This document shows, piece by piece, positions 349 to 58,978 of a DNA stretch of 64,000 nt. Positions within the stretch are counted from its first letter, which is position 1, and every line of letters starts with the position of its first letter. This DNA comes from Raja brachyura. Taxonomy: Eukaryota. The position numbers were made by a program, and so were the translations under genes. Where the stretch lies: positions 4,402,001 to 4,466,000 of the forward strand of contig OY740795.1 of assembly GCA_963514005.1 (NCBI GenBank). Reading direction: 5' to 3'. The notes beneath the pieces were generated by a model. That model searched no databases. It saw only the letters and a list, made by a program, of their open reading frames with translations, and was not told the DNA's origin.

Positions 349-3300
349 CTATCTTTTTAACGAAGCAAATGCATGACAAAGAAATAGTACCGCATTCTTT
401 ATCTCCTCCCGGAATTTACGCTGGGTGACTACATAAATGCAAGTGTTGGTGCAAGAACTCAACAGCTGAAGCATGTTTCCACTTTCCTGGCGAATGAACC
501 TTGGGTCGTTGAAATTGGAACCACTGAAATAGGGTTCGTTTGAAAATTGAACGTAGAGGAAATCAACCACGTACGTCATCCACAACATGATGAAGCTGCC
601 CGAGATAGCGAAGAGTAAAATGATGGACTTCCTCCGACTTTCCATCTCTGCATCGCTCTGCTTATCTCCTTGATTCTGGGACATAAGTCTCGCGCGCGCT
701 CTGCTGGCGACTATGATGTGTCTGACCGTCAATGCGTTCAAGAGTAAAATCAGGACGAACGGGAGCCCAGGGTTTAAAATGCGTGCAAACCAATCATACA
801 CAGTCCATCCTATTGTGTTGTAACTGGATTTTACGCTACAAAACCAGGGTGTATTGTCAACTATGTAGAGGGGTTCGTAAATAAAGTACCAGGGGACGCT
901 TTTGAGACAGCTCAACAAACAGATTGTCCCAATAACAATCGCCGCCGTTCTCTCGGTGCAATATATGTTGCTTACCTTCTGGCAACAAATGGCAACGAAC
1001 CTATCAAATGTGAAAGCGACTGTCAGCCAGACAGAACTCTCCGTGGCTGCATAAATTGCAACAGTGCTGAGAGTACAAGCTGGGGTTAAGGACATAAAAC
1101 TAAATGGATAGTAAATGCCAACAATCCGATTGAAGATGACAGCTGTGATAACGACCAGTAGATCCATCACCGCCATGGACACCAGGTACCGGCTGATGCA
1201 TCTGGAGAGACCGCACCTTCCTCGGGCCAGGATTACAATCGCCACCAAATTAACTGTGAGAGGGAAGAGAATTGAAATTAACAAACGTGTTATTAATTTC
1301 CCACCAAGTGCCACGAGACGCGATTCCATGATGGAGCATTTTAATCCTGTCGAACAATCATTTATGGATGATGCCACCAAAGGAAAAATTTGTATTTTAC
1401 CAGTTCACCTCCACATTTAATCTTCAGTTGTGCGCAATAAAAATATGTACAAAAATGAATTTGAAAAGTGTATGGGAAATCTGCGCTGTGTTAGTGGCGA
1501 TAAATAAACACACGATTCCTTCTCTGCGATCCCATAAGGCAATATTCATAAAAATTGAGTTGCGGGTTTCCTCTAACATAGGAAGTACCGTTAGGTTCAC
1601 GTGGTGAATGTCGACATGTTGCTGTCACGTTGACGCAAAAAAAAACGTACATAAAAAATGAAATAGAGTTGCCTTCCGCACTTTCAAAGTATACAGTTCC
1701 GTGAGACCGGGATGAATATGTTTGCGGATCACCCACCACAGGTGGAATAGCAATGAGAGGCAACACATCCACAACACTAACCTGACAACCATCAGTTCAG
1801 ACTAGTTATTTCCACCACCTGCCGGATGTGTAACGCAATTTCAGGCTGTTATTACTTGAGGGCACGAGCTCAAAACTCATTACATTGAACTTGTGGTTGT
1901 CAGGCACCACGTATAAAACTTTATTCATCCCTGGAGGTAAATTGGTTTGCCAACCGTCACAATACACAACAAGGTACACGAAAAAGGAAAAGGCAAGTTG
2001 GCTGTGGCCCCTTCACCGGTACAAATGAACAAACAAACGAATACAGACTTATCCCCTGGACAGATGATTCTAAACTAGAGTATGTGCCCCCGTCCCCCAC
2101 ACCGGTACCCCTTTGTTCTCCCACTGTCCCTCCGTCAGAAAGGTGAGATTCGGAATGGGGGGGGGGGGGGGGGGGGTGGAGTTGAAGTGCTGGGCCACCG
2201 GGAGATCAGGTTGGTTAATGCCAACCGAGCGGAGGTGTTGGGCGCATCGATCGCCAACCCTGCGTTTGGTCTCACGAGGTAGAGCAGTTGACACCTAGGG
2301 CAGCGGATGCAATGGATTAATATCAATTAAATCACTGGAGTTATTTAATATTGAGCTTTTTTATTAAGTTAAGCTTTTAATATTAAGTTTTTTATATTGA
2401 GCTTATATTGATGACTGCTGGCGACAGAGAGTTAGATTGATAGATATATGGATAGATCGATAAATATACATAGATGTGTAGANNNNNNNNNNNNNNNNNN
2501 NNNNNNNNNNNNNNNNNNNNNNNNNNNNNNNNNNNNNNNNNNNNNNNNNNNNNNNNNNNNNNNNNNNNNNNNNNNNNNNNNNNNNNNNNNNNNNNNNNNN
2601 NNNNNNNNNNNNNNNNNNNNNNNNNNNNNNNNNNNNNNNNNNNNNNNNNNNNNNNNNNNNNNNNNNNNNNNNNNNNNNNNNNNNNNNNNNNNNAATATAA
2701 AGACGAGAATAGGTGTGAACATACTTTAAGCAAATAATTTATAAATGCGAACATTAATTTTATATACCAGAAGAGCGTGACAATGATGAAATAAGGAGCC
2801 AGGAGAACAGAAGCACAAAAATACAAGTTATTCATAAATCGTGTCATACAAATGGTATTTATTACATATCCCACTAAACATTTCCCTTCTTTGACGAGAC
2901 TGGGGGAATTTCCGTCCCTCACGACCGCTCACTTTAGATGTTAACACCCTCTTATCAATCTTTTTCACTGCAATATCTAAGGAAGCACACAAGAACCGCA
3001 TTTAAATTTTGATAACTTGATAATAGAACGAATGTTAAAACATTTGACGTTCAGCGTAAATACTCTCTAACCTAATTCACCAGGGCGCAGTAATGTGCTG
3101 CACACCGATACAATTTCCTTCCCATCAGAAGTCGAGCTCCAACTTATTATTGTCATTGTAGATACTGGAGCGACGAAGAAGAGGCTTGCAGAACGAATAT
3201 CTAAAACCGAGTTTCTCCAGAACCTGCCCCTACTGCATATTACCAGACTGTAATAAAGATATACAAAATGATTTTGATTTATATGTTCCATATAATAAGG

Positions 3301-4643
3301 ACATCTCAGTGAAGTTGGACATCGATGTATGCTTCAAAGAACTATCGCAGGTAACTGGAGGCACGACCGATGCCGTCTCTGTGAAATCCCGGAAACACGT
3401 TAAATAATTGAACGCTCGTCCAGTTCGATATAACCAGGCGTAGTTTGACATTTTCTCTGCAGAGCTCGTCCAATCATTTGCATTAAAATGCTAGAGTAAA
3501 TCGGCGGGTCAGGCAGCATCCCCTTCGGGTCGGGACCTGTCATCCGACCCGAAATGTCATAAATTGATGTCCTCTAGAGATGCTGCCTGACCTGCTGAGT
3601 CACTGCAGCAATTTGTGTCTTTTATCCAAATTATTTGCATGCCACATATCAGACACCGAAACCGTCCGACGATCATCAGAGAAGGAGAAGATCAGTCGGT
3701 TAGGAAACACTTTAATAACATTCTCAAGCCATTTATGCATTACTTTTCCAACTTCGCCGAATAACGGGGATCTCAGGAAGGAGAACCTGGAAAGTCACCG
3801 GATAACTTGAGCGGCCGAAGACACGCACAAGACGAGCAACATGGTAAAGAAACGCGTTACCGCGCACGATCCTGTCGAGGACCTCGTTGTCTGTTGAATT
3901 GCTCCGCTATTCAGAATTAGTTACACTCGCTTAATTCAAGTGCATTGCTCGTGGCTTGTAACAACGGAGCTGTCTGTTAACTTCACAATAGCGACTCCGC
4001 AAGTAAATTAAGTCTCCTCAACTTGCATGTCCATTGAAATCAATACAATGAAAATCTGGCGTGGTATCAAGTGCTGTGTAGCCGATGTTACTAACTTTGC
4101 AAAAGTAACAAATAAAGTAATAATCTTGTTTGATTTAGATCGTCCACTAGCAGAAATAGAGTGAAGCCCAGAGATTTTTCAGGAAGTTACCAAGTAGTGT
4201 AGGTTGTTGTGACTGCACATATTGTGAGTTTCTGCAAACGAAAGTTGGTAGATGTGAAATGTTTTTATTCATCCAGAGAAGCAGGCATACTTTCTGTCAG
4301 TAGCAACTCTCCAAACTCATAATACACCGTGTTTTTATACTCTTAAAAACAAAGATAACAGGAGACGATTCAATGCAATTTAATTGCTTGTTAAAAATAT
4401 TGGCCATCGTTCATATTAATTGCCGCCATCACTTAATTTCTGAAGGATGCCCTCTAATACTGGCAAAATGTCAACTTAATCACTGAAACATTTTCCGAAA
4501 GAACAAAAACCTGTAAGATTAGTATCGACGGTATGTCATTAAAAACCATTAGATATTTAGTACAACGGCTTACCCGGAACTCCAATAGCTGCAAGAAGTG
4601 GGTAGTAAACGGCATAAACTGGACCGCTTATTCTGCCGTGCAT
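349..4643 (-). CDS. GPR139/GPR142-like class A GPCR, gene 1 (subfamily A); exons complement(join(349..1253,4574..4643)), 324 aa
   Basis: Exon 2 ORF has seven hydrophobic segments, TM2 D, TM3 Cys plus DRF, ECL2 WFC and TM7 NTCIY. The acceptor is ccctctcacag|TT at 1253. Exon 1 MHGRISGPVYAVYYPLLAAIGVP-G ends at a g|gtaag donor (4574) and is homologous to the first exons of the other four genes. 70+905 nt = 325 codons. Confidence 0.9.
2065..2335 (-). mobile_element. Penelope-like element fragment (GIY-YIG endonuclease region) in intron of gene 1
   Basis: Frameshifted translation IHCIRCPRCQLLY...ETKRRVGDRCAQHLRSV..NQPDLPVAQHFNS matches the PLE GIY-YIG pattern. Confidence 0.75.
2483..2693. other. 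assembly gap (N run)
   Basis: Run of N. Confidence 1.
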
Positions 4644-4732
4644 TTTTCCAGTTTCGCTGCTGATATTCGGTCACGCAGCCTGTTCGCGATAGCTCAGCCA
4701 AACCTCTCAGTTATACGGAATCCACAGAGAGG

Positions 4733-4770
4733 CAATTAGGCAACTATGTTTTCAGTTTCTTGAACAAATA
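4733..4770 (-). promoter_or_regulatory. conserved bipartite upstream motif of gene 1 (TATTTGTT-N24-TAATTG)
   Basis: The same motif pair and spacing lie upstream of all five GPCR ATGs. Function is inferred. Confidence 0.5.
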
Positions 4771-5944
4771 GTTTTGGCATTGTTGTCCATACTTTTCTTT
4801 GTGCGCGGTCGAATTTTATTCCAAATCTCACCTTGGAGAGAACGATCCCTCATGGACCAGAATAGTCTCGATGCAATTTATCAGCAATTTCAGCAACCGC
4901 TGCTCAGTAACTAATTGGATTTCTTTTCACGTGGAGTTGTTATTTTTATTTGTTTGAATGGGTATGGAATACGAACATGATAATTATATTCAATGCAACG
5001 AACATGATAAATATATTCAACGATCGTACATTTATTTTCTGTCATCGTTTTGCATTAAAATGTACTGATTTGCATTGCCAGTGTTCCTCATCGTAGGTAT
5101 GCAAATACTTTCGTGTAAAACGATGATTTCTCCCAACTTTCAATGCGTCTTCAGAGAGATATTTACCAAATCATATTTTAATCGATGCAGTAAAGTAAGA
5201 ACAGATGTGGGTTGTTATCCAATCAATAACAAGAGCAAGTTAGCCAGCAAAGAAAGTGGTGCAGAGAACTACTGAGAATGAAGTCTTTATACTCAAATCT
5301 GGCTTTGTTCGTATTCAATTTCTCTACTGGCTAAATTCCTATTGTTACCAAATTGGTATTGTTGCTAAATTTAACATTGTGACGTGTACCGAGATATAGT
5401 CAAAATGTAAAGATGAAGGCGATGTAACAGTGAACAATCCCCATTGCCCATGAATTTAACTAACCTTGGCTTGAGGAGAATCCTCGTCAAGCACACCGAA
5501 ACAAAAGGTCTCCAGGGCAGCAAAACCTGAAGGTTAGGAAATATAAATGATGAACTTTATTCAGTACTCAATGCACAATACTATACACCGATGACCAATT
5601 CTGAGCTGCAGACGTTCCCTCGCCCGCCACTTGTAATGTTAGCACAAGGAATATAGAACATCGGAGCACATTAACAGCGCTTTCGACCCACTAAGTCTGT
5701 GCGGTTCCAATTTGAACTAATCCAACCTACATGATTTACAGCACTCCTGTTCACATTGAAATGCCTCGTAAATATCACTACCGTATCTGCATCCATTAGC
5801 ACCCGTGCAGCCCGTTCCAGGCACCTAATATTCTCAGTGTAAATAAAGTTGCCTCACAAATCTCCTTTAAACGTAACCCATCTGACGATAAACCTATGTC
5901 GTTTGGCGTTTGACATTTTCACCCTGGGCAACGGCGCTCATATT

Positions 5945-6405
5945 AACCATATAACCATATAACAGTTACAGCACGGAAACAAGTCCTCTCGGCCCTTCCA
6001 GTCCGTGCCGAACATTTATTTTCACCTAGTCCCAACCATCTGCACTCAGACCATACCCCTCCATTCCCTTCCCGTCCATATACCTATCCACTTTACTTTT
6101 AAATGTTAAAATCGATCCTGCCTCCACCACTTCTGCTGGAGGCTCATTCCACACAGCCACCACTCTCTGAGTAAAGAAGTTCCTCCTCATGTTACCCCTA
6201 AACTTCTGTCCCTTAATTCTCATGTCATGCCCTCTTGTTTGAATCTTCCCTACCCCCAATGGGAAAAGCTATTCCACGTCAACTCTGTCTATCCCTTTCA
6301 TCATTTTGAAGACCTCAATCAAGTCCCCCTTAACCTTCTGCGCTCCAAAGAATAAAGACCAACCTTTCTCTGCAACTTAGTTGCTGGAACCCAGGCAACA
6401 TTCTA
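5945..6405 (-). mobile_element. CR1 LINE 3' fragment
   Basis: TRGHDMRIKGQKFRGNMRRNFFTQRVVAVWNEP (CR1 ORF2 C-terminus) and a short tandem tail. Confidence 0.8.
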
Positions 6406-6571
6406 TGGAAAAATATTCGACACAATTAGCAGCACAATTAGATATCCATGGACAGCGAGATTTAGAGAAAGTGATTGAGGCATTTACGATAACCGCTTTT
6501 AAGAGGCGCAGGATATGACAGGGGATGGAGGGATATGGATCACGTGCAGGCAGAGGAAATTAGCTTATCTT

Positions 6572-7955: not shown

Positions 7956-8033
7956 AGAGTTTTGGATAGGCAGATAGATAGACCGGAATAGGAGGGATAT
8001 GGATTATGTGCAGGTAGCTAAGATTTGGAATCA

Positions 8034-9682: not shown

Positions 9683-9721
9683 TGTTTGTTCGGTGACTGG
9701 AACTAACTCTATTTGTAATGA
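9683..9721 (+). promoter_or_regulatory. conserved bipartite upstream motif of gene 2 (TGTTTGTT-N25-TAATGA)
   Basis: Positional and spacing match to the motif upstream of the other four GPCR genes. A TATA-like tataata follows near 9754. Confidence 0.45.
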
Positions 9722-9833
9722 GATTTATTGGTCTCCATTTGCGTGGCAACAAGTATAATAAGGGAACCCATCAACAATGAAAGGCGAGGTTTGTGAGCGA
9801 ACTTTGGAAAAACGTGCCAACTGCACAGAGAAC

Positions 9834-12160
9834 ATGCACGCCCCGCCCACGGGATTGCCATATGCCATTTACTATACGGCACTTGCAGTTATCGCTGTTC
9901 CAGGTAAGGTTTGCAGTCAGTTTTTCTTTTTTGTAATTGTTCTAGTCAAGCCATGGCTTGGCAAAGACCGGCGAGTGTATAATATTTGTAATTAGCTTTG
10001 TTCGGACTTAAATCTGAGTAATTCATTCTGCCCTGACAATCTTTCCTGAGAAATGAATACTAGATTCAGAAGTGTTGCCGATATATCGATGGCTAATTAA
10101 TGACAGATTCTGTAAAACTGGATAGCGGTTCTTTCTGTTTAAATAATGAAGGAAGGGTGAACATATTGAAACGAATAAATGGGGCAAACAGAAAGACAAC
10201 TCTCGTCCTATAGGACAGTCTGGAACAAGCGATATCAAGTTAAACTTGCAACCAAGGTATTTGGGAAAAGGCTGGAAAATTTCTTCATACATGGTGTCCG
10301 GGCTTTTAAATGTCCTTCCACCATTTTAGTCAAAATTTCGTAGCTCGGCTTGATTGTCTCTTTTTAGGCAACCGTGTTTTAGGTGAAGAAACTATTAGCT
10401 ATGAAGGTATTATTTTCTAGAATGCATTTCAATTGTCTACGGGTATAGAGATACCAGATTTATTCTGGATCTCTTTATTCGATGTGAACCCAGCAGTGCG
10501 CTGTTAAAAGTATAATGTTAGTGACATCGACCCTGCTGAGCAATCCTTGCCAGTACCGCACCTGAACTCAGACAACCGCTGAAACTTGATCAATGTCCAT
10601 TCTAGCAGTGCACTAAATTAGTAATAGATATTGCCCCTGAACCTAACGCGCTGCTAAAGACGCTTTAGAGATGATTGGATGCCGAAATGGAAATACTACA
10701 TTCCCTGAATTAATGTTTCTCCCAAATTAAGTAGCAAATTAATGTAAGGCACGTTGGAAGGTAAATCGCTCCAAGAAGAGGATTGCGCTAACTTCGAGCA
10801 ATGTTACACGGTTAATTTCTAATGTAACATTCACTTCAGAATGAGTGCATTGCCGACGATGTCCCATCAATTCTGAGAATAACTATAATGAAAGCCTGCA
10901 TGGTTTGGGCCTATCATGACTTTTACTAAGCGTAGGACGGAACTGCAGATGCGGATTTTTACCAAAGCTAGACACACAATGCTGGAGTAACACCGCGGGG
11001 CAGGCAGCATCTCTGGAGAAACGGAATAGTTGGCGTTTCCTGTTGGAACCCATCTTCAGACTTAAGACTTTAGACTTTTAATAAGCTATATTTACTCAAT
11101 GGCATTGAAACCTCAAACCCCTGCTTGGGTGAGCACAGTATTATATCAGTTTCTATACTTTAAAGAATGAAGACTGCATCCTTAGTTTGCGTTCAGTATT
11201 TCCCTGAAACTGTAACATGTTCTCTCACATTCTCTCTTTTCCCTCCGTCCCCCGCCCTCTGATGCAGCCAATTTAGCGGCGATCGTGGTTTTGTCTCAAA
11301 ACAAATGCGGCCTCTCCAAGTGTATTACTCGCTATCTGCTGTCCATGTCAGTGACGGATCTTCTTGTCATTATCACCGCTGTGATAATCAACAGGTTCAG
11401 TGGGATTTACTTTCCGGGCAGCTTCCTATCCATCACTCCAGTCTGTAGTCTTACCATTGCGGTGACATATGCAGCCAGGGTCAGTTCCGTCTGGTTAACG
11501 GTCACTTTCACCTTTGATCGGTTTGTAGCTATTTCCTGTCAGAAGCTGAAAACAAAATATTGCACCGAGAAAACAGCAACAGTGGTCATAGGAACAGTGT
11601 GTGTGCTGGGATTTTTGACCAATATCCCATGGTATTTTATACATGAGCCTATCTATATAATCGACAACGTTCCGTGGTATTGCAGGCTGAAGGAAATCCG
11701 TTACACTTCGCCAGTGTGGACAGCATTGGACTGGTTTGATAGAATTTCCACCCCGTGTCTCCCGTTCCTCCTGATTTTGCTGCTCAACGCTCTGACTGTC
11801 AGATACATCCTGGCGGCCAGCAGAGCTCGTAGAAGGCTCCGGGACCAGAGCAATGGAGAGAAGCAGAGCGACCCAGAGATGGAAAGTAGAAAGAAGTCCA
11901 TAATTTTGCTCTTCACTATCTCCGGAAGTTTCATCCTCTTGTGGATGACGTATGTTGTACAGTTCCTGTACGTCCGCATCACGAATGACTACAACTTCAA
12001 AAGCTTCAATGACCCCAAGTTTATTCTACAGGAAGCCGGAAACATGCTTCAACTCTTGAGCTCTTGCACTAACACCTTTATTTATGCAGCAATCCAGAGA
12101 AGATTCAGAGAAGAGTTAAAGAAAATGTTTAAATTTCCATTAAGAATGTTTCGTGAATAA
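9834..12160 (+). CDS. GPR139/GPR142-like class A GPCR, gene 2 (subfamily B); exons join(9834..9903,11268..12160), 320 aa
   Basis: Exon 1 MHAPPTGLPYAIYYTALAVIAVP-G|gtaagg. Pyrimidine tract plus tgcag|CC acceptor at 11268. Intact 7TM ORF with DRF, WYC and NTFIY. Confidence 0.9.
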
Positions 12161-13789: not shown

Positions 13790-16335
13790 GGATGAAGGGT
13801 GTAAGTTGCAGCAGGAGTTAAAACTGGCATGCAATAAAGGTAATGCCACCGTGGTGATGGGGGATTTCAATATGCAGGTACACTGGGAAAATCAGGTTGG
13901 TTCAGGACCCCAAGAAAGAGAGTTTGTAGAATGCTTCCGAGATTGATTCTGAGAGCAGCTTGTAATGGAGCCGACCAGAGAAAATGCAATTCTGGATTTA
14001 GTGTTGTCCAATGAACCAGATATGATAAGAGAAGTCAAGGTAAAGGAACCGCTTGGAGGTAGTGATCATAAGATGATTAGTTTTAATCTGCAATTTGAGA
14101 AGGAGAACATTAAATCGGAAGTGGCAGTGATGCAGTTGAACAAATGGGACTATGAAGGCATGAGAGGGGAGCTGACCAAGGTAGACTGGAAAGGGATCCT
14201 AGCAGGAATGACGGTGGAACAGCAATGGCAGGAATTTCTGGGCATAATCCGGAAGACGCAGGATCATTTTATTCCAAAAAGGAAGAAAGATTCTAAGGGG
14301 AGTAGGAGGCAACCGTGGCTGACAAGAGAAGTTAGGGATAGAATGAAACTAAAAGAAAAGATGTATAACACAGCACAGAGTACTGGAAGCCAGAGGATTG
14401 GGAAACTTTCATAGGACAACAGAAGGAAACAAAACGGGCAATAGGGGCTGAAAAGATGAAGTACGAGGGGAAGATGGCCAGGAATATAAAGCAGGACAGT
14501 AAAAACGTATTTAGATATGTTAAGGGGAAAAGAGTAGCAAAGTCCAATGTGGGTCCCTTGAAGGCAGACACGGGCGAAATTATTATGGGCAACAAGGAAA
14601 TCGCTGAAGCGTTGGATAGGTACTTCGGATCTGTCTTCCCTAAGGAAGACACAAACTATCTCCCAGATGTACTGGAGGACAGAGGATCTAAGGGGGTAAA
14701 GGAACCGAAATAAATTTTCATTAGGCGAGAAATAGTATTGGGTAGTCTAATGGGACTGAAGGATGATAAATCCCCTGGGCCTGATGGTCTGCATCCCAGG
14801 GTCCTCAGGGAGGTGGCACTAGAAATAGTGGACGCATTGGTGATCATTTTCCAATGTTCAATAGATTCAGGATCAGTTCCTGTGCATTGGAGGATAGCTA
14901 ATGTGATCGCACTTTTCAAGAAAGGAGCGAGGGAGAAAACGGGGAATTACAGACCAGTTAGCCTGACTTCGGTAGTGGGAAAGATGCTGGAGTCAATTAT
15001 TAAAGAGGTAATAATGGGGCATTTGGATAGCAGTAAGAGGATTAGTCCAAGTCAACATCGATTTATGAAAGGGAAATCATGCTTGACTAATCTTCTGGAA
15101 TTTTTTGAGGATGTGACAAGTAAAATGGATGAAGGGGTGCCAGTTGCTGCAGTGTATCTAGACTTTCAGAAAGCCTTTGATAAGGTTCCGCATGGGGGAC
15201 TGTTGATTAAAATTAGAGCACATTGTATTGGGGGTAGGGTGTTGACGTGGGTAGAAAATTGGTTGGCAGACAGCTAGCAAAGAGTAGGAGTGAACGGGTC
15301 ATTTTCAGAATGGCAGGCAGTGGCGAGTGGAGTGCCGCAAGGCTCGGTGTTGGGGCCGCAACCCTTTACCATATATACTAATGATTTAGAAGAGGGAATT
15401 AGGAGCAACACTAGCAAGTTTGCGGATGACAGTGTGAACTGTGAAGAGGAGGTTAGGAGGTTGCAGGGTGACCTGGGCAGGTTGCGTGAGTGTTCAGATA
15501 CAGTATAATATAGATAAATGTGAGGTTATCCACTTTGGCAGCAAAAACAAGGGGGGAGATTATTATCTCAATGGGGGTAGGTTAGGAAAGGGGGAGGTAC
15601 AGCGAGAACTGGGTGTTCTTCTACACCGGTCATTGAAAGTTGGCGTGCGGGTACAGCAGGCAGTGAAGAAAGCTAATGGAATGTTGGCTTTCATAACAAG
15701 AGGATTTCAGTATAGGAGTAAAGTGGTTCTTCTGCAGTTGTATAGGGCTCTGGTGGGACCACATCTGGAGTATTGTGTACAGTTTTGGTCTCCTAATTTG
15801 AGGAAGGACATCCTTGTGATTGAGGCAGTGCAGCGTAGGTTCATGAGATTGATCCCTGGGATGGCGGGACTGTCATATGAGGAAAGATTGAAAAGACTGG
15901 GCTTGTATTCACTGGAGTTTAGAGTGGTGAGGGGAGATCTTATAGAAACATATAAAATTATGAAAGGACTGGACAAGCTAGATGCAGGAAAAATGTCCCC
16001 AATGTTGGGCGAGTCCAGAATCAGGGACCACAGTCTTAGAATAAAGGGGAGGTCATTTAGGACTAAGGTGAGAAAAAACATTTTCACCCTGAGAGTTGTG
16101 AATTTATGGAATTCCCTGCCACAGAGGGCAGTGGAGGCCAAATCACTGGATGGATTTAAGAGAGAGTGAGATGGAGCTCCAGGGGCTAGTGAACTCATGG
16201 GATATGGGGAGAAGGCAGGTATTAGAGAAGGAAGGGTTATTGATAGGGGACGATAGCCATGATCACAATGAATGGCGGTGCTGGCTCGAAGGGCTGAATG
16301 GCCTACTCCTGCGCCTATTTTCTATGTTTCTATGT
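13790..16335 (+). mobile_element. CR1 LINE, long ORF2 remnant (APE endonuclease end + RT + 3' UTR), disrupted
   Basis: MGDFN, PTRENAILDLVL, SDH, KSPGPDGLHPRVL, NYRPVSLTS, DFQKAFDKVPH, GVPQGSVLGP, KFADD; (tttctatg)n tail; several frameshifts and stops. Confidence 0.93.
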
Positions 16336-18060: not shown

Positions 18061-18661
18061 TTGTTTTTGCACTAGTATTACCATTGGTCACCCTGATTCT
18101 TGACTCTTAACTATTTTATCCTTGTAATGGACGAACATCTACAAGTATATACGGGTCGTCAACCGTTTTTTAAGAATACGTTTCCTACTTGTAAACGACA
18201 GCAACGTCTTTCGGTGAAATACGTGGTGAATGGCTCTTGTGCAAAATAAGTTAGCTTCATTTTCTACTTGCAGACCATGTATTGTGTGAGTTTGTTTGCA
18301 ATGCAAGGAGTATGCTGCAATTTGCTTATGGGGTCTCATCTTGCACTTTCTGCTTAGCGAGTACATTTTGTGAACTTGTGTAGACCTTGGATGGTCGGTA
18401 TAAACAAAATGTTTGCAGAGATGTAACGAAAAATGTTGTGAATCCACCGTGCGTTGAATGAGTCCTCCGTGTATTATGTAAATGTATTTCGTTCTGTGCA
18501 AATTAGATTTACAATATTGCGACACAGGACAAAAATACGTAACCACCGCTACTCTGTTGCTTCAATTCTCTCCTCAACAATATCTCACCCAACTGCAGTT
18601 GTTTCACCTCGATGGCCAATTGTTAGAAAACAAAATGAGCACAGGGAACGTGTGTCAAATT

Positions 18662-18699
18662 TATTCGTTTAAGAAATTGAATCATCGTTAATCTAATTG
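18662..18699 (+). promoter_or_regulatory. conserved bipartite upstream motif of gene 3 (TATTCGTT-N24-TAATTG)
   Basis: The motif is followed by c.tctctgtggattcc..aactgagagg, which is also conserved upstream of gene 1. Confidence 0.5.
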
Positions 18700-18797
18700 C
18701 ATCTCTGTGGATTCCCGCCACGTAAAACTGAGAGGTCGGTTGTAGCAAAATTGCACTCCGGAAAACCTTCAGGAAAAACCAAACCATCTCATGAACA

Positions 18798-21274
18798 ATG
18801 CACGACAGAATAACTGGCCCAGTTTATGCCATTTACTACTCACTTCTTGCAGCCATCGGCGTTTCAGGTAAGCCGTTGTACTAAATTAGCGAGTGATATA
18901 TCGATGTTTAATAAATTACTGTTTTTCCGATAATTAACAAGGTGACACATGTTTCTCTGCGCGCTTCTACCTCGGTAAGCAAGCTCCAATGGTTCATTTT
19001 TAGAATTTGTCACGAAACTAAACTTTTGGTAACCACTTATAAAATGTGAGGTTTTGATGAAAGGTCTCCTGGCGGACTTGCTGAAATCAACAACGCCGTT
19101 GCATAAATCGTGACCCTCAGTGATGATGCAAAATGATTAATGGCGATCTTGCAACCTGAGATGCCTTTTCCCGAATTGTATTTCTATTCATTACAGAATG
19201 ATTGCTAATTGGGAAGATGCAAATTCAACTGCAAATCCGTAATCATAGAATGTATGCCATCACTCCAAGTCACAATTTACCCGATCTAGGTGAACGATGT
19301 AAATGGTCCAATGTCGCAGAGCGATTCAGCAGACAAGGAGATCCTTATCAGACAACAGTGGTGGCTGGATGGTGTGCGAGGTCATACTTACTTTCGGACT
19401 TCGCTTTACCACAGATTCTCTTTGCGTTACCGGACGAGACTAGTGGCTCTCCTCGCACTTCCACGCATTGCGTCTTTATTTTAGTCGGCCTTGGGCCAGA
19501 GCTTCTTATTTGTTTTCAGAAAATGCTACAATTTCTCATGGGTCTTTGAGAACATTCTTGATCGTTTTACTTTACGGATATTTATTGAAGGTCTGTTCTC
19601 TGATCATTTTCTTTAAAACATCCAAGTTAACGCCGATATAGTGTTTATTTTTTTTGAGCGTGCATACAAATAAATATTAAATGTATTCTGCAACTTGATG
19701 GTTAGCTTGGGGCGACTTTGTACCTTGCGGTTCAATATCTTCTCAGTATTGTATTTGTGGCACCACTACCTTGCTATACTTTATGAGTTAAGGCTCAATA
19801 CACTTCAAGGTAAAGGGAAACTGGTACATTGTGTTTGTGCCGTTACTGGAAAGGCCGCAGTATTGGATTGGCAGCCATTGTGGAAGAGACCTAGATTTCC
19901 ATTGCATTGTCCTCTCAAAGGGAAAATTGTACGCTAATAGATACCGACTAACATTCAATGGATTTTCTAGATACCTTCCAATCCTTCGCACTCGTGTCAT
20001 TACCTTTGAAATGAGAGCTAAATATTCCGGGTAAGATCGTGTCAGAAAATGATCCCGGGAACTATTTGTTTTCGCTTTGCTCTTAATCTATAAACTATTA
20101 TCTGTGACAACTTTAAAACATCCGGGTGATATTTTGCGTGAGTTTCCACTGTGGATGGCTCGATTTTCATCATGACAATACACAATAGGTGCAGGAATCG
20201 GTCATTCGGCCTTTCGAGCCGAATCATTTATTGTCTTTCAGTTGACTGGTTGCACGCAACAAAAAGGTTTTCACTGTACTTTGGTGCACGTGACAAAAGA
20301 TTACACTAAACTAAACTAAAATAAATATGATAACACGTCTATTAATTTAAATGTCTTTTCCATCAGTGAATGTGGTGGCGATTGTGATCCTGTCCAGAGG
20401 AAGATGCGGTCTCTCCAAGTGCATCACTCGGTATCTGGTGTCCATGGCGGTGACGGATCTACTGGTCGTTATCACTGCTGTTATATTCAACCGGATTGTT
20501 GGCATTTATTTTCCATTTAGTTTTATGTCCTTAACCCCAGCTTGTACTCTCAGCACTGTTGCAATTTATGCAGCCACCGAGAGTTCGGTCTGGTTGACAG
20601 TCGCATTCACCTTTGATCGGTTCGTGGCCATTTGTTGCCAGAAGCGGAGGAGTACATATTGCACAGAGAGAACGGCGGCGGTGGTCATTGGGACAATCTG
20701 TGTGTTGAGCTGTTTGAAAAGCGTCCCTTGGTACTTCATCTACGAACCACTCTACATCATTGACAATCAAGCATGGTTTTGTACCAGGAAATCAATCTAC
20801 AGCATATCACTCGCCTGGACAGTGTATGATTGGTTTGCACGCATTTTAAACCCAGGCCTCCCGTTCGTCCTGATCTTAACCTTTAATATTCTGACGGTCA
20901 GACACATTCTCGTGGCGAGTAGAGGCCGCAAAAAACTCGTGTCCCAGAGTCACGGAGAAAAGCAAAGTGACGCAGAGATGGAGAGTCGGAGAAAGTCCAT
21001 GGTTTTGCTCTTTCTCATCTCGGGCAGTTTCATCCTGCTGTGGATGACGTACGTTGTGAATTTCCTCTATGTGGAAATTTCAAAGGAACCCTATTTCAGT
21101 GGTTCCAATTTCAACGACCCAAGGTTCATTCGCCAGGAAAGTGGAAACATGCTTCAGCTACTGAGCTCTTGCACCAACACTTGCATTTATGTAGTTACCC
21201 AGAGTAAATTCAGGGCGGAAATGAAAAATGCTGCATTGTATCTCTGGAATCGAATTACTACATTAATAAGATGA
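18798..21274 (+). CDS. GPR139/GPR142-like class A GPCR, gene 3 (subfamily A); exons join(18798..18867,20367..21274), 325 aa
   Basis: Exon 1 MHDRITGPVYAIYYSLLAAIGVS-G|gtaag. Acceptor ttttccatcag|TG. Intact 7TM ORF. Confidence 0.9.
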
Positions 21275-21729
21275 GGGGACACTAAATCTCAACTTTGGCT
21301 AATCGTGCGATGAAATCTTGTTATCCAACGACCGTCGAACTGGCATTATCTAACGATAAATGGCCGATAAATAATTGATATTTGTGTTGGTTTATTATTG
21401 TCACCTGTATCGAGATACAGTGAAAACGTAGTTTTGCGTGCTATCCAGGCAAATTACAGCATAGATGAGCACATCAGGGTAGTACGAAAGAAAGAATAAA
21501 CCGAGTGGTGAAGATAGTGTTACGGTGACATGGAAAGAATCGTTTAAAAGTGCAAGGGCGCGAAGGGGAGATGAAAAGGGAGGAGAGGTATGTTCAATAG
21601 TGATAACAGCGGAGAAGCGGTTCTTGAGTATGGCGATCTCCATGATCCCAGCAGATAGATTTGCAAAACGGAGAGTCCATTTGTTCCCAAACTCTTCTTC
21701 TTTTTTTCTGTTAACCAATTCTGGATATA

Positions 21730-23323
21730 CAGTGGCTTGCAAAAGTTTTCATACCCCTTGAACTTTTCCACATTTTGTCACGTTATAACCACAAACGTAA
21801 ATGTATTATATTGGGATTTTATGTGATAGACCCATACAAAGTGGCGCATAATTGTGAAGTGGAAGGTAAATGATACATGGTTTTTTTACGAATAAAAAAC
21901 TGAAAAGTGTGGCGTGCAAAAGTATTCAGCCCCCTTTACTCTGATACCCTTAAATAAAATCCAGTGCAACCAATTGCCTTCAGAAGTCACCTAATTAGTA
22001 TATAGAGTCCACTTGCGTGTAGTCTAATCTCAGTATAAATACAGCTGTTCTGTGAAGGCCTCAGAGGTTTGTTAGAGAACATTAGTGAACAAACAGCATA
22101 ATGAAGCCCAAGGTCAGGGATGAAGTTGTGGAGAAGTTTAAAGTAGGGTTAGGTTATTAAAAAATATCCCAAGCTTTGAACATCTCACGGAGGACTGTTC
22201 AATCCATCATCCGAAAATGGAAAGAGTATGGCACAAGTGCAAACCTACCAAGACATGGCCGTCCACCTAAACTGACAGGCCGGGTAAGGAGAGCATTGAT
22301 CAGAGAAGCAGCCAAGAGGCCCATGGTAACTCTGGAGGAGCTGCAGAGATCCACAGCTCAGGTGGGAGAATCTGTCCACAGGACAATTATTAGTCGTGCA
22401 CTCCACAAATCGGGCCTTTATGGAAGAGTGATAAGAAGAAAGCCATTGTTGAAACAAAGCCATAAGAAGTCCCGTTTGCAGTTTGCCACAAGCCATGTGG
22501 GGGACACAGCAAACATGTGGAGGAAGGTGCTCTGGTCTGATGAGACCAACATTGAAGTTTTTGGCCTAAATGCAAAACGCTATGTGTGGCGGAAAACTAA
22601 CACTGCACATGACCCTGAACACACCATACCGACTGTGAACCATGGTGGTGGCAGCATCGTGCTGTGGGGATGCTTTTCTTCAGCAGGGACAGAGAAGCTG
22701 GTCAGAGTTGATGGGAAGATGGATTGAGCGAAATGCAGAGTAATCTTGGAAGAAAACCTGTTAGAGTCTGCAAAAGACTTGAGACTGGGGCGGAGGTTCA
22801 CCTTCCAGCAGGACAACGTCCCTAAACATACAGCCAGAACTACAATGGAATGGTTTAGATGAAAGCATATTCATGTGTTAGAATGGCCCAGTCAAAGTCC
22901 AGACCTAAATCCAATTGAGAATCTCTGACACGACTTGAAAATTGCTGTTCACAGACGCTCTCCATCCAATCTGACTGAGCTTGAGTTATTTTGCTAAGAA
23001 GAATGGGCACAAAATTCAGTCTCTAAATGTGCAAACATGGTAGAGACATACCCCAAAAGATTTGCAGATGTAATTGCAGCGAAAGGTGGTTCTACAAAGT
23101 ATTGACTCAGGGGGGCAGAATACTTTTGCACGCCACACTTTTCAGTTTTTTATTTGTAATAACATTTGGAAACCATGTATCATTTTCCTTCCACTTCACA
23201 AATATGCGCCACTTTGTGTTGGTCTATCACATAAAATCCCAATAAAATACATTTACGTTTGTGGTTGTAACATGACAACATGTGGAAAAGTTCAAGGGGT
23301 ATGAAAACTTTTGCGATCCACTG
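21730..23323 (+). mobile_element. full-length Tc1-family (IR/DR type) DNA transposon, transposase inactivated
   Basis: TA target duplication (21728-29 and 23324-25) and ~205-215-bp inverted repeats starting CAGTGG. The transposase (~22101-23106) has paired-like HTH, GRPPKL, WSDET, QQDN and SPDLNPIENL motifs with in-frame stops. The paralogous site is empty (~34340). Confidence 0.95.
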
Positions 23324-26057: not shown

Positions 26058-27129
26058 GCTGAACCCTCAATTCATCAATATACATTGTAATTCAACATTG
26101 CGCCTACTCATGAAATCCTAGAATAGTAAGGCAGAAGACAGTTGCCGGTACGTGTACCTGGTGGAATGTTCAGGATCCTACAGCAAAACCCACAACATGT
26201 TCAATTGCAATTTTATCCTCCCAGCGGCATTTCATATATGTTCAAAGCATCCGTTATATGTGTCTTATGCATTCATCTATGTTAGATTATATTATTTGTA
26301 TCACTTTTATGATATGGTATAATATGGCAATCCAATACTCCTGTTTCCATTCACGAAAAATGTACCACATTCTACCCCGAAGCGCAGTAGCTCGTCTAAT
26401 AAATTACTCTTATATAATACTCCAAAACAAACTTGTATTTGAATGAATCAGTATTCATTTATCCCTAAACTCTATGGATTGATTTAGCGAAATATTGATT
26501 ACAATATATTGTGTTCAAATAACATCTAAACATTGAATATATTTTTTCACGTAATACCTCGCTTGCCCGTTGTGAAAGTATTTGTCGATTATATTTTGAA
26601 CGCCGCGAACAGTAATTACTCTTCAAACTGCGATTAGATTATCTTGAACGTCTGTGCTTTTCGCTGGAGATTTCTACTGGGCAACCATTGGTGGACGGAT
26701 TGATAGTGTAAGAATGCGCACTCGAAGAAAGCTTTCGGGCAAAGTGTTCCACAGAGCCCATATATTTTATCAACAGATATGAAAAGAATATATCTTAAGA
26801 CTATGGTGAAGTGGGCACTTCACCATCTTTCACACAGCGCCTATTAGTTCAGCCACTTTAAAACTAGCAACTTGAACGCAGGACAAGTCCAACGATATAA
26901 TTATTGAACAAACAGACACGGCCAGACGTTTCCAAAAAATATTTCGTGAACATGGGAACATGCATTACTAAGCTCGAATCATTCCATAATCTTAGATGTC
27001 CTAAGCCACATGTGAATGGAATGGCGAAGAAAAAATAATAAAGGTGCTCAAAGTTGAGGAATTGATAAATACAATTCTGCATGCAAGGCATTGCCGTTGG
27101 GGGATCGGTAACACCTCCAACTCAGGGTC

Positions 27130-45170: not shown

Positions 45171-45209
45171 AGTTTTTGTACCAGTGCCCTGTGATCTTGT
45201 AACATGGTG
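45171..45209 (-). other. recombination signal sequence of V2: CACCATG-N23-ACAAAAACT
   Basis: Heptamer 45203-45209 (CAC intact), 23-nt spacer, nonamer 45171-45179. Confidence 0.85.
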
Positions 45210-45759
45210 GTTCATGGCCGCGCAGTAATACACAGCGGAGTCGGACAACTCCGCGAGTGAGATATTCAGAGGGACGCGAGCGTTCATTCTGTCCTGCCGT
45301 GCAGTAAACCGCTTTTTGAAAGCTGGCGCGTTCTCTTCCAGATTTGCTGTGTGCCTGACCAACATATACTGCGGTCCACAACCCTCGAACTGGACGTACC
45401 AGTAAAAGTAAGCAGCAGTGTAGGTGGTGGGGTAGTCACATGGAAGGGTCGCAGTATTTCCTTCACTTATCACCAAGGCTGAAGGTTCTTGGGACAAAAT
45501 GTCCTGAGTGCTAACTTCTGAAATCAAATTACAAAAGATTTATTAATTACATATAATATATAAAGCACAACAACCCAACGCGGGAATTACAGTGGAAGCT
45601 TTCGCGAGAAACGATTGCAAGATTACGAGACACCGAGTCACATTTTAACCTCCCACGTCCATCAACTCCCACCCCAGCCCAATACCTTCCCACCCTCCAT
45701 TCCCCACCCCTGCACGCCAGCATCTGTGAGCAGATAAAGAATGTGCCGAAGATTCTCAT
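45210..45759 (-). CDS. T-cell receptor alpha/delta-type V segment V2; putative leader 45708..45759, V exon 45210..45517
   Basis: Leader MRIFGTFFICSQMLACR-G|gtgggg. Acceptor gatttcag|AA in phase 1. V domain DILSQEP..ATLPC..YFYWYVQ..KRF..VPLNISLAELSDSAVYYCAA followed by a 23-RSS. Confidence 0.87.
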
Positions 45760-51510: not shown

Positions 51511-51519
51511 AGTGGAGGT

Positions 51520-53970: not shown

Positions 53971-54009
53971 TTGTTGACACGAAGCGGGGGGGGGGGGGGG
54001 GGGGGGGTG

Positions 54010-55078
54010 GTGGGGGGGAGTGTTAGGGTGAGGAGGATGCTAGGAGGCTACAAGTTGACTTGGATAGGTTGGGTGAGTGGGCAAATGCATGGCAGATGCA
54101 GTATAATGTGGATAAATGTGAGGTTATCCACTTTGGTGGCAAAAACAGGAGTAGACTATTATTTATATGGTGGCCGATTAGGTAAAGGGGCGATGCAACG
54201 AGACCTAGGTGTCATGGCATACCAGTCATTGAAAGTCATTGGCATGCAGGTGCAGCAGGCAGTGAAGAAAGCGAATGGCATGTTAGCATTCATAGCGAAA
54301 GGATTTGAGTATAGGAGCAGGGAGAATCTACTGCAGTTGTACAGGGTCTTGGTGAGACCACACCTGGAGTATTGCCTACAATTTTGGTCTCCTAATCTGA
54401 GGAAAGACATTCCTGCCATAGAGGGAGTACAGGTAAGGTTCCTACACCTGCACCTATTTTCTATGTTTCTATGTTTCTACAGCCATCAGGCTATTAAACA
54501 CTACAACCTCAAATAAGCTCTGAACTAAAACAGACTATTATTGTTAATATTGCAGTCTTACTGTTTATTTTGTTGTGAGTATGTATGCGTGCGACAGATT
54601 CCTGGGATGTCAGGACAGTCTTATGAACAAAGACTGCATAGACTCGGTTTATACTCTCTAGAATTTAGGAGATTGAGAGGGGATCTTATAGAAACGTACA
54701 AAATTCTTACGGGGTTGGACAGGCTAGATGCAGGAAGATTGTTCCCATTGTTGGGGAGGTCCAGGACAAGGCGTCACAGCTTAAGGATAAGGGGGAAATC
54801 CTTTAGGACCGAAATGAGAAGGACTTTTTTCACACAGAAAGTGGTGGGTCTCTGGATCTCTCTGCCACAGAGGGTAGTTGAGGCCAGTTCATTGGCTATT
54901 TTTAAGAGGGAGTTAGATGTGGCCCTTGTGGCTAAGGAGATCAGAGGGTATGGAGAGAAGGCAGGTACGGGATACTGAGTGGGATGATCAGCCATGATCA
55001 TATTGAATGGCGGTGCAGGCTCGAAGGGCCGAATGGCCTACTCCTGCACCTAATTTCTATGTTTCTATGTTTCTATGT
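54010..55078 (+). mobile_element. CR1 LINE 3' fragments (two pieces, with Rex1-type tail between)
   Basis: QVQQAVKKANGMLAFI..RPHLEYC.QFWSP; RLGLYSLEFRRLRGDLIETYKIL; (tttctatg)n tail. Confidence 0.85.
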
Positions 55079-55167
55079 TACGAGTGTTTAAAAAATCTTG
55101 AAATCAGCTGACAATCACCATGATGAAGGTAACACCCCTTCCGTTGGGGGGGGGGGGGGGGCACAAA

Positions 55168-55540
55168 TTGCTACAAAATTCAGTTTGGTGGCTTGCACTC
55201 TGCCTGAAATACTACGAAAATCAGTTTGGTGGCCTGCACTATGCCTGAAATGCTACGAAATTGAGTTTGGTGGCCTGCAGGCTACCTGAAATGCTACGAA
55301 GTTGAGTTTGGTGGCTTGCACTCTGCCTGAAATACTACGAAATTCAGTTTGGTGGCCTGCACTATGCCTGAAATGCTACGAAATTGAGTTTGGTGGCCTG
55401 CAGGCTACCTTAAATGCTACGAAGTTGAGTTTGGTGGCCCATACTCTCTCTGAAATGCTACGAAATTGAGTTTGGTGGCCCACACTCTGCTTGAAATGGT
55501 ATGAAATTGATTTTGGTGGCCCGCACTCTGCGTGAAATGG
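55168..55540 (+). repeat. minisatellite, ~40-41-bp unit (tgctacgaaattgagtttggtggcctgcactatgcctgaaa), ~9 copies
   Basis: Direct inspection. Confidence 0.9.
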
Positions 55541-55557
55541 AATTTCAAGGAATAGCC

Positions 55558-55805
55558 GTGATTGATCTACCAGCCCACCAGCCCCGAGTGACTGATCTGC
55601 CAGCCCACTAGCCCTGACTGACTGAGCTGTCAGCCCACCAGCCCTGAGTGACTGAGCTGCCAGCCCACCAGCCCAGAGTGACTCAGCTGCTAGGCCACCA
55701 GCACTGAGTGACTGAGCTGCCAGTCCACCAGGCCTGAGTTACTGAGCTGCCAGCCCACCAGGCCTCAGTGACTGAGCTGCCAGCCTACCAGGCGTGAGAG
55801 CTAGC
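55558..55805 (+). repeat. minisatellite, 30-bp unit (gtgactgagctgccagcccaccagccctga), ~8 copies
   Basis: Direct inspection. Confidence 0.9.
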
Positions 55806-56706
55806 CCAAGAATCCATCCGGCCCACAATGTCCACACTAGCCCTCCGGAAACCAGTCCCTTCGGCCCACAACAACCATACTAGCGTTCCGGAAAGCCACA
55901 GGCCACCAATATTGGAATTGACGGAGAGGTGGAAAAATGCGTTGGGGGACCAGCCCTCCCGTGTGAACATGGGACCCAACGGGTCCCACTTAGTCTAGTA
56001 TATATAAAGATATATATTTATATATGTGTGTATTTGTGCGTATGTGTATATATACACACTGGACTTTCTCTCTCTCGTTTATCATATTGGTTATAGTGTA
56101 CTATGTTTACATATGCCGTTGTGTTGCAGCAAGTAAGAATTTCATTGTTCTATCTGTAACATAAGACAATAAAACACTCTTGACGCGCCAGTATTCAACT
56201 GCTATTCCAGCCCAGGTTGCAACGATTAGGCACGAAAATCCAGGTAATGCTAAACGACCCAAAGTCGTTGGTCGGCCGCTCTCTTATCAAACGACATGTT
56301 CCACGTCAGTACAATATCATCAATAATGTATTTTCAACCATGTAGTGTATCTATGGTCCTCTTTATTCCTGAATGTGACTCCAGGCATATGACAAAGTGA
56401 TTTGGCCTGAATTGATGATGAACCATATGCTTTACTCTTGCCACAAATTACTATATCCTTATTTTAACAAAATTAAATGGTAGATGTCAACTTAATTTGA
56501 TGGAATTTTATTTCGCAGTTATTGATCACCGGTGCACTATAACCAATGGGATTCGTTGTCCATTTTTAATCGATGTCTCATATTAGCATTATAGCTGACC
56601 ATAAACAATACAATCACCAGCTCATGCACAGTTCCAATACAGGGAAACACTTTATTATTCCTCTTTATTAACATTGCAAATGAAATAAGGATTTACTCAG
56701 TTAACC

Positions 56707-58978
56707 TCATTGTTTCAATCGTTGGGTAATTAAATCAAATGGATATTTCACCGCGCCTTTTAACTGCTCTCTAAATTTGGTCTGCGTCCCTGCGTAAATG
56801 CACGTGTTGGTGCAGGAACTGAGAAGCTGCAACATGTACCCGCTTTCTTGCAGGATAAACTTTGGATCGTTGCCATTTGACACGACGGAGTAGGTATTGC
56901 TTGTAATTTGTACAAACGCAAAATTTACAACGTAGGTCAACCACAAGAGAATAAAACTGCCCGATATGGCGAAGAGTAAAATTATAGACTTTCTCCTGCT
57001 CTCCATTTCGGGGTCACTCTGTTTCTCGCCATTGCTTTGGGCCCGGAGTCTCCTGCGAGCTCTGCTGGCGGCGAGAATGAATCTGACTGTAAAAGCGTTG
57101 AACAGCAGAATCATGAGGAACGGGAGGCAGGGGTTCAAAATTCGGTCCAGCCAGTCATAAACCCTCCAGCCAACGCTAGTGTAATTAATTTCTTTGATGC
57201 TGCAGTACCAGGGTATGTTATTCGCAACATAAACAGGCTCGTAAATGAAGTAAAAGGGAACGTTTTTCAGACAGCCCACCACGCAGACGACTCCTATAAC
57301 AAGACCCGCGGTTTTTTCGGTGCAGTACTTCAGCTTTAGCTGTTGGCAGCAAATGGCGATGAATCGGTCGAAGGTGAAAGCGACTGTTAACCAAACGGAA
57401 GTGTCTCTGGCAGCGCAGCTGAGGACAATACCCAGACTGCAGGCTGGTGTGGTGGACAGGAATGTAACTGGGAAATAAATCGCCCGGAGCCGGCTTAATA
57501 TGACAGCTGTGATAATGACCAGGAAATCCGTCACGGCCATGGACACCAGGTAGCGAGTGATGCACTTGGAGAGGCCGCACTTTCCTTGAGAAAGGATCGC
57601 AATTGTCACCAGGTTGGCTGTAAGGGGAAGAGACACGAGACAGGTTAGTGATCATTCGACCTCCGAGTTTACCAGTTAGAGAAAAGCTGTTATCAAATAA
57701 TTCATCCAAAAAAGTCACATATGTATGTTCCCCAGAGGTGCTGCATAACCCTCTGAGTTTCTCCAGCACTTTGTAGTCTGTTTTTTTCACATATCTAATA
57801 ATTGTTTTAGTGGTTTAACTTTATCGGCTTATCGATAGTTATCCATTTATAAATAAAAATATTTATCATAAATACAATTAAATTATCAAACGGAAAATAA
57901 GATGCAACATTTATTTCCAAGTGTGAAGCCTTTCCTATTGCAGCAGAACACACGAATCATGAAAAGGTCAAACAACGCATCATGTTGAATGGGCGAGTGT
58001 TCTAATAAATCTCAACGCAATGCGTGGTTTACAAGGCAATAAGAAGCAAAATCAAACTATGAAGATATTGTAATAAACTTTTAAGCTGCCTGGAATACAA
58101 GAAAGTCACTGTAAATGTCATTGATATTGAACATGTCCGTGGTTAATGTAAATATATCAAAGAAGATCAGATGATATTATATGCAGCAGCCAGCGAAAGT
58201 AATGCCACAGAACAAATATTTGAACGCTAATCCAACTGTTATTTCTTGCGTCGCTTCAAGAAGGAATTTTGTTTTTTGTTGCAAGTAGGTATAATTTTTT
58301 ACGGCCAATAACCGGGATCTTTCTCCCTCTATTGTGTCAGCTCAACGCCTCGTTAGCAAAGCTCCGTGCTCCGTGACGATTATAATTATAAATATATCAG
58401 ATCATAATTAGCAGCGGATCATTTTGTGATGTTGTCTTCTCCAACCATCTGAAAGTAGAGAGTGGAGACCCGAAAGGAAGACAGGCCAGACGTAAAAAAC
58501 TAAGGAACCACCAAATTATTAAGAAAAAGGAATTTCGGAGCTAGATTAGACAGTTATGACTAAACCTTGACTGTGTCTTAATAGCCCAATATCATGCTGT
58601 AAAATAAATGATTCTTCCAATAATATAAAGAGAATAATTATATAACCAGATTCCCTTTCAAAGTTACTCGATCGTATTCTTATTTCGTAAAGAGAACAGA
58701 ACGAATATAACCAGATTCCCTTTCAAAGTTACTCGATCGTATTCTTATTTCGTAAAGAGAACAGAACGAATATCAATCGATAGTTAAGGCGTAACGCGGC
58801 ATATATTCGATACGCAGCCTGCGTCTGAAGATTAAAGGTACAGTCGACACTCTATTCCACTTAGATTTGGTCAAACCTTGAATACTCGTTTAGTCGTCCA
58901 AACTTTACCTAGAACACCGAAAGCGGCAAGAATAGAATAATAAATGGCAAAAACTGGTCCATTTCCAGGAGCATGCAT
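56707..58978 (-). CDS. GPR139/GPR142-like class A GPCR, gene 5 (subfamily B-like); exons complement(join(56707..57617,58909..58978)), 326 aa
   Basis: Exon 1 MHAPGNGPVFAIYYSILAAFGVL-G|gtaaag. Acceptor cttccccttacag|CC. Intact 7TM ORF with DRF, WYC and NTCIY. Confidence 0.9.
58641..58770 (+). repeat. perfect 65-bp tandem duplication in intron of gene 5
   Basis: tataaccagattccc...agaacgaa occurs twice, at 58641 and 58706. Confidence 0.92.

Follow-up and report, generated by a model that had tools for sequence, protein, structure and literature searches.

A GPR139-clade receptor family of more than 1,000 copies in Raja brachyura and its possible role in olfaction

The known olfactory receptors of vertebrates belong to four families, OR, TAAR, V1R/ORA and V2R/OlfC, and in cartilaginous fishes the known olfactory receptor genes number 20-62, despite many olfactory neurons (PMC10869828). 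Here, we describe five G-protein coupled receptor (GPCR) genes in a 64,000-nucleotide stretch of the Raja brachyura genome (assembly GCA_963514005.1, contig OY740795.1, positions 4,402,001 to 4,466,000; hereafter the window), together with the large family to which they belong. We consider it fairly probable, on sequence grounds, that this family is an unrecognised olfactory chemoreceptor repertoire of cartilaginous fishes.

In the catshark the olfactory neurons are microvillous and positive for TRPC2 and Go, with the V2R co-receptor v2r1 marking them at only moderate frequency (PMC10116579), and the catshark genome paper, in its available parts, covers only the four known olfactory families (PMC11979771). 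The other system with which the new genes have to be compared is GPR139, which is ~70% or more identical across vertebrates. Its agonist site comprises E3.32, F3.33, H5x43, W6.48, R6.51 and N7x38, and Trp and Phe have been reported to bind E3.32, H5x43 and R6.51 (PMC7318219). The family described here would work much as the four olfactory families do, with very large clusters, a short N-terminus and a variable pocket. It shares with the ORs promoters that combine O/E, homeodomain and TATA elements and an interleaving with TRAV segments, but differs from them in having two coding exons and in deriving from a neuropeptide-receptor clade.

Five intact genes and the size of the family

All five genes (g1 to g5) are intact, each with a 70-nt first exon, a phase-1 GT..AG intron, a second exon of 893-911 nt and a product of 320-326 amino acids. 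Their positions in the window are as follows.

4574..4643, minus strand: g1 exon 1, with the ATG, the N-terminus and the first half of transmembrane helix 1 (TM1)
349..1253, minus strand: g1 exon 2, from mid-TM1 to the stop, with the 7tm_1 match
9834..9903, plus strand: g2 exon 1
11268..12160, plus strand: g2 exon 2
18798..18867, plus strand: g3 exon 1
20367..21274, plus strand: g3 exon 2
31413..31482, plus strand: g4 exon 1
32965..33872, plus strand: g4 exon 2
58909..58978, minus strand: g5 exon 1
56707..57617, minus strand: g5 exon 2

Pairwise identities among the five range from 62% to 96%, the closest pair, g3 and g4 (96%), being part of a tandem duplication (18062-21729 and 30664-34343, 93.6%). 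Every protein exceeds the Pfam 7tm_1 cut-off and is thus assigned to class A. The OR profile 7tm_4 matched just one of them, at 20.8 bits and below its cut-off of 27, so that none is recognised as an OR.

A first-pass annotation of the window had described receptors with only about eight residues ahead of TM1, no sequon downstream of a conserved MH start, and a particular set of motifs, and this description holds throughout. All five proteins start with MH, place 24 residues ahead of Asn1.50, have no sequon in exon 1, carry DRF, FI(L/M)LW(M/L)TY in TM6 and NT(C/F)IY in TM7, and retain P5.50 and the cysteines of TM3 and extracellular loop 2. For a Mobula relative with 82% identity over exon 2, the AlphaFold model (mean pLDDT 85) has seven helices with TM1 beginning at residue 8, and a fold search also returns GPCR folds. 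One caveat concerns g2, in which an in-frame ATG 19 codons upstream would bring in an N-C-T sequon; since this ATG lies merely 23 nt past a TATA-like box, it is probably outside the transcript.

The possibility that g3 is an assembly artefact was rejected. Contigs from all three public runs, belonging to two studies, cover its exons and intron, so the gene is not peculiar to one assembly. There were no RNA datasets among the public runs listed for the g3 exon, and the three runs cover intron and exons equally.

The five genes are members of a mostly intact class A family with more than 1,000 copies. Searching the same genome at the protein level gave at least 130 matches (every one of the best 130 of 2,670 candidates), 126 of them stop-free and 95 on a single contig, C15 in our numbering. 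The TM3 pattern W[LF]TVxFTxDR has 1,371 exact matches in the genome against two for the reversed control, and the TM7 pattern CTNT[CF]IY has 1,146 against 22; the matches are clustered across many chromosomes. Exon 2 was intact at 35 of 40 TM3-motif loci, sampled in fixed steps from the first 100 listed and confined to contigs C1-C11, and all 15 copies in the 264 kb around the window are stop-free. Multiplying 1,371 by 35/40 suggests ~1,200 intact genes, a figure that may include haplotype duplicates on small contigs. The earlier description of an intact, tandemly amplifying family was therefore sound in kind but understated in scale. Like an olfactory repertoire, the family is large, clustered and subject to copy birth and death.

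It was also proposed from the window that the repertoire is ligand-diversifying, and the variation among 50 copies bears this out. Mean entropy is 2.04 bits at 28 pocket positions compared with 0.58 bits at 22 positions of the G-protein face (p=2e-6), both sets having been chosen from general class A knowledge; a hypervariable pocket thus sits on a conserved core. Over 18 non-overlapping pairs, pN/pS is 0.43 in the extracellular half and 0.23 in the intracellular half, and selection is, on these values, purifying overall and relaxed on the extracellular side.

The size of the family might also reflect a mostly neutral or dosage-driven amplification of a peptide or amino-acid receptor within repeat-rich chromosome ends, in which case the majority of copies would be redundant or silent. 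Many of the listed clusters are indeed near contig ends, the copies on small contigs may in part be haplotype duplicates, and recent duplicates among the 50 copies reach 99% identity. The median pairwise identity, however, is only 52%, and the intact fraction of 35/40, the purifying selection, the subfamilies common to sharks and rays and the promoter motifs conserved where flanking DNA can no longer be aligned all run counter to neutrality. We regard this explanation as very doubtful.

Promoters and the olfactory proposal

Candidate promoter elements, with functions assigned by their motifs, are found upstream of each gene in the window.

4711..4738, minus strand: g1, TAATTG (4738-4733), O/E-like TCTCTGTGGA (4730-4721) and a TATA-like box (4715-4711)
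9716..9758, plus strand: g2, TAATGA and a TATA-like box, with no strict O/E match
18694..18711, plus strand: g3, TAATTG, 2 nt and O/E-like TCTCTGTGGA
31309..31326, plus strand: g4, the same composite as in g3 (TAATTG, 2 nt, O/E-like TCTCTGTGGA)
59038..59071, minus strand: g5, TAATTG and a TATA-like box, with no strict O/E match

The signal extends beyond the window. Exon 1 could be recovered in 86 copies and the DNA upstream in 83, and these 83 fall into 40 mutually non-alignable clusters and were weighted by cluster. The region from -170 to -50 relative to the ATG was compared with eight upstream or intron windows and 100 shuffles. A homeodomain site is present in a fraction of 0.69 of promoters (0.15-0.33 in the eight control windows, 0.35 in shuffles), an O/E match of 7/8 or better in 0.28 (at most 0.08 in controls), an adjacent pair of the two in 0.19 (0.00 in controls) and a TATA box in 0.43 (0.04-0.24 in controls). 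The O/E-like site is mostly 20-25 nt ahead of the TATA box, often with the homeodomain site adjacent; ~19 cluster-weighted O/E matches are concentrated at TATA-25 to -16, and no other 5-nt bin has more than 3.5. An unguided search returned tCtCnggGGA and TAATTGtCtC with log-likelihoods of 73-80, compared with 35-51 in 12 shuffles. The first exact O/E pattern that was tried matched none of 33 promoters, and the signal emerges de novo and when mismatches are allowed. The EBF consensus used in the scan agrees with the OMP probe (PMC5608512 suppl. 7).

In the mouse, O/E, homeodomain and TATA elements are the motifs in which OR promoters are enriched (PMC3247239). OR enhancers are driven by Lhx2 and Ebf sites lying side by side (PMC5608512), and the sequence of the mouse Lhx2-Ebf composite probe is TAATTG-A-TCTCCAAGGAA (PMC5608512 suppl. 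7). The promoter combination of an olfactory repertoire, O/E with homeodomain, is thus present in the family, although the strict composite is not family-wide. Between the two roles first suggested for the window genes, an amino-acid or peptide chemosensory repertoire and a set of leukocyte receptors, the promoter motifs make the chemosensory one the better option; amino-acid sensing in the manner of GPR139 is not indicated for most members (see below).

The history and a proposed mechanism can be outlined. A single ancestral gene, low in copy in amphibians and sturgeon, was amplified into clusters on many chromosomes, with the receptor core and intracellular face held fixed and the ligand pocket diversified. 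Through the shared TATA box, the O/E-like site ~20-25 nt upstream and the often adjacent homeodomain site, Lhx2- and Ebf-type factors would turn on individual genes in olfactory sensory neurons. Each receptor would then recognise a water-borne small molecule or peptide of its own, and all would act through one common G protein, Go/Gi or Gq, in the TRPC2-positive microvillous neurons of the shark nose. The stronger statement, that the more than 1,000 GPR139-clade receptors make up a fifth vertebrate olfactory family of neuropeptide-receptor origin, expressed sparsely in the olfactory neurons of sharks and rays under Lhx2/Ebf control, is in our judgement evenly poised.

Several observations weigh against an olfactory role. 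The assignment is based on promoter motifs, and EBF and homeodomain factors are active in B cells and other neurons too. The strict composite pattern has 49 matches in the genome against 18 for its control, of which only four were placed at family promoters, three in the window and one ~31 kb to its left; on these counts the tight composite is a subfamily trait. The homeodomain-to-O/E spacing in the family promoters is mostly 2 nt, as opposed to 1 nt in the mouse probe, and two of the five window genes have no strict O/E match. The promoter sample leans to subfamilies on C15, and its controls were upstream and intron windows and shuffles. Pooled over the 18 pairs there is no excess of dN over dS. 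Family copies also lie among V segments of T-cell receptor (TCR) alpha type and near immunoglobulin (Ig) C1 exons. The homeodomain and O/E architecture has been documented for ORs of ciliated neurons, which are apparently absent in sharks (PMC10116579), and the top 50 genes of catshark 'brain and olfactory epithelium' include no GPCR, V2Rs being missed as well (PMC11979771).

A chemosensory repertoire could also operate elsewhere than in the nose, for instance in taste cells, gut enteroendocrine cells, ampullae, sperm or the solitary chemosensory cells of skin or gill. The size of the family, the diversity of its pocket and its conserved signalling face suit any chemosensory cell, and in the catshark non-olfactory sites of this kind express OR and V2R-like genes (PMC11979771). 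The combination of homeodomain, O/E and TATA elements, however, is best known from olfactory neurons, and we find a role confined to these other sites improbable.

Ancestry and receptor core

Skates and rays supply the closest database proteins, with up to 83% identity. Among the best 120 of 2,587 database matches every named protein is an elasmobranch GPCR (two rows are unnamed), and nearly all carry the automatic label 'probable G-protein coupled receptor 139'. The family is present in sharks, rays and a chimaera. Because the Callorhinchus protein, the sole chimaera member seen, nests inside it, the family appears to be older than the chimaera-elasmobranch split. The subfamilies of the window have both shark and ray orthologues in the tree, and for this reason are old and maintained.

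Orthology to GPR139, which the label implies and the first-pass annotation had doubted, is rejected. An orthologue would be a single-copy gene with ~70% or more identity across vertebrates; the family is 24-31% identical to GPR139, and the genome holds one true GPR139 on C21 and, on C23, one GPR142-like gene 57% identical to it, which we infer to be GPR142. In a tree of 56 rows the 37 family rows join a low-copy amphibian and sturgeon gene with support of 100/100, coelacanth and teleost paralogues adjoin this clade, and GPR139 and GPR142 stand apart. The family's own branch is less well supported (82/72). Forcing the family together with GPR139/142 is rejected by the approximately unbiased (AU) test (p=0.005), which was applied to a quick tree restricted to 28 of these rows and was run after the first tree had been seen. 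Three further matches from the same genome, taken as possible paralogues, proved to be other GPCRs, presumably one chemokine-receptor-like and two somatostatin-receptor-like.

The family does belong to the broader GPR139/GPR142 clade. With GPR139 and GPR142 the family shares a phase-1 intron just before N1.50, the absence of P7.50 and Asn at 5.58. The best solved structure by sequence is 7vug, a GPR139/GPR142 entry (E 9e-10), and GPR139/GPR142 are also top by fold. In contrast to these two receptors, the family has retained C3.25, has acquired P5.47, has lost P6.50 in most members and has the Trp/Phe-binding residues replaced. The TM3 cysteine that it keeps is absent in this genome's GPR139 (C21) and GPR142-like gene.

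The amphibian and sturgeon gene is itself a conserved orphan GPCR, present in frogs, salamanders, a caecilian and sturgeon; databases call it GPR139, from which it is distinct. In the search its matches formed 20 clusters in amphibians, or roughly one for each species, with a single match in sturgeon and none in amniotes. Like the family it has the WLTVAFTFDR motif and a short N-terminus; unlike the family it retains P6.50, has no P5.47 and is low in copy, compared with more than 1,000. Rinne et al. (2019) list such fish and coelacanth subtypes as GPR210 (PMC6504862), and the amphibian/sturgeon gene with its coelacanth and teleost paralogues may possibly be GPR210 subtypes.

The next closest resemblance in the ESM Atlas is to protostome FMRFamide-type receptors. 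The nematode srw members of this group have a chemoreceptor role. Unlike the family, the group diversified with endogenous amidated peptides; the protostome expansion of FMRFamide-type-1, MIP, proctolin and myosuppressin receptors is the sister group of GPR139/142 (PMC8557429).

The window genes had been singled out for altered activation switches and for the loss of prolines in TM6 and TM7. The prolines are missing from all five, but the idea that altered switches set the family apart is rejected, as P7.50 is lacking across the clade and the core switches are intact. P7.50 is absent from GPR139, GPR142 and all aligned amphibian, fish, amphioxus and invertebrate outgroups, Asn replaces Y5.58 in the same two receptors and every aligned outgroup, and the N-termini of amphibian, fish and amphioxus relatives are as short as the family's. 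The missing TM7 proline and the short N-terminus are thus inherited from the wider GPR139 clade; exceptions with P7.50 are found in 12 of 120 homologues and one of 100 copies from the genome. These 100 comprise 15 copies around the window and 85 parsed from 100 fetched loci, 15 having been dropped (five broken, three other GPCRs and seven unparsed).

P6.50, by comparison, is found in GPR139/142, in amphibians, sturgeon and amphioxus and in some family members that branch early, and is retained in seven of the 100 copies and four of the 120 homologues. Most of the family has lost it, and the coelacanth/teleost gene did so separately. TM5 has a second proline, P5.47, in 48 of 50 copies, and the corresponding column of the 18 outgroup rows contains no proline. 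The traits that belong to the family are only this extra proline and the TM6 loss, which is not universal and is a subfamily trait, likely tolerated rather than causal. Since D2.50, D3.49, R3.50, P5.50, F6.44, W6.48, N7.49 and Y7.53 do not vary among the 50 copies, the members are likely to signal normally.

The GPR139 agonist site is not preserved. By our own alignment, W6.48 is present in all 50 copies, R6.51 in six, His at 5.42 in eight, F3.33 in seven and N7.39 in 13, and Glu is not among the seven commonest residues at 3.32. With the Trp/Phe-binding residues mostly replaced, amino-acid sensing of the GPR139 kind is not indicated for most members.

Antigen-receptor segments among the receptor genes

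Three V segments, each with a 23-bp recombination signal sequence (RSS), lie between g4 and g5.

36724..37031, minus strand: TCR-like V segment between receptor genes, RSS CACACAG-23-ACAAAAACT
45171..45506, minus strand: TCR-like V segment
48446..48781, minus strand: TCR-like V segment, a duplicate 95% identical to that at 45171..45506

They are situated ~3.2 Mb past a J-alpha array, on the strand opposite to it, and could be orphons or could rearrange by inversion. The sequence search did not fix their chain type; the array 3.2 Mb away points to TCR-alpha. A V leader near 45.76 kb looks open, and the presumed leaders of the other two carry stops. A duplicated block at 26833-26964 (minus strand) holds both flanks of the 36.8-kb V segment with the V itself missing, which suggests a clean deletion in one copy. 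Fragments of long interspersed nuclear element (LINE) reverse transcriptase (13953-16169, plus strand) and of a Tc1/Sleeping Beauty-type transposase (22161-22727, plus strand) also lie between receptor genes.

At C15:0-1.0 Mb, at least 14 family copies are interspersed with many V segments. These are followed at 1.12-1.24 Mb (C15:1122000-1239000) by ~93 J segments with 12-bp RSS, a count of 103 lines less six false and four duplicates, which includes a recent run of some 50 near-identical segments at 1.164-1.200 Mb. V followed by J is the layout of a TCR-alpha locus. DAD1 flanks TRA in mammals and chicken; here, it is located not on C15 but on C4 (C4:58334352-58337023). Ig-type C1 exons were observed within or near family clusters at C15 0.55, 1.52, 4.85-4.97 and 58.4 Mb, at C3:128.64 Mb, on C47 and on C25.

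This neighbourhood bears on the idea of a leukocyte repertoire, in which the receptors would sense patterns or peptides on B cells, T cells or granulocytes, be driven by EBF1 and be kept near antigen-receptor loci. Fourteen of the best 130 copies lie at C15:25-997 kb among V segments, just upstream of the J array, C1 exons occur inside or near several clusters, and the window holds V segments of its own. Mammalian odorant receptors, however, are also interspersed with TRAV segments (PMC2275272), so TCR linkage does not imply immune function. Many clusters have none of the 150 scored C1 matches in their vicinity, and the promoters are not enriched in Ets (8/33) or Runx (6/33) sites relative to shuffles (6.7 and 6.1), with NF-kB sites in 2/33. 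We consider a leukocyte role unlikely and favour the olfactory one.

No description of the family was found in the literature searched, subscription journals being outside its scope. In-text searches of PMC11979771, PMC12227049, PMC10751288, PMC10869828 and PMC10116579 for GPR and GPCR terms gave no mention either, and the main texts of the second and third, papers on shark antigen-receptor and MHC regions, do not refer to GPCRs. Databases already list the proteins, under an automatically given name; the family itself is undescribed in that literature.

Sharks and rays have the fewest known olfactory receptors of any vertebrate group, despite large noses (PMC10869828). With ~1,200 intact receptors under one automatic name and promoter motifs of OR type, this few-receptor puzzle becomes testable with existing tissue RNA-seq. 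If true, the olfactory proposal would overturn the idea of a sense of smell in cartilaginous fishes built on ~40 receptors. Whatever the tissue, an expansion from a low-copy orphan gene to the scale of the mammalian odorant receptors is a major feature of chondrichthyan genomes.

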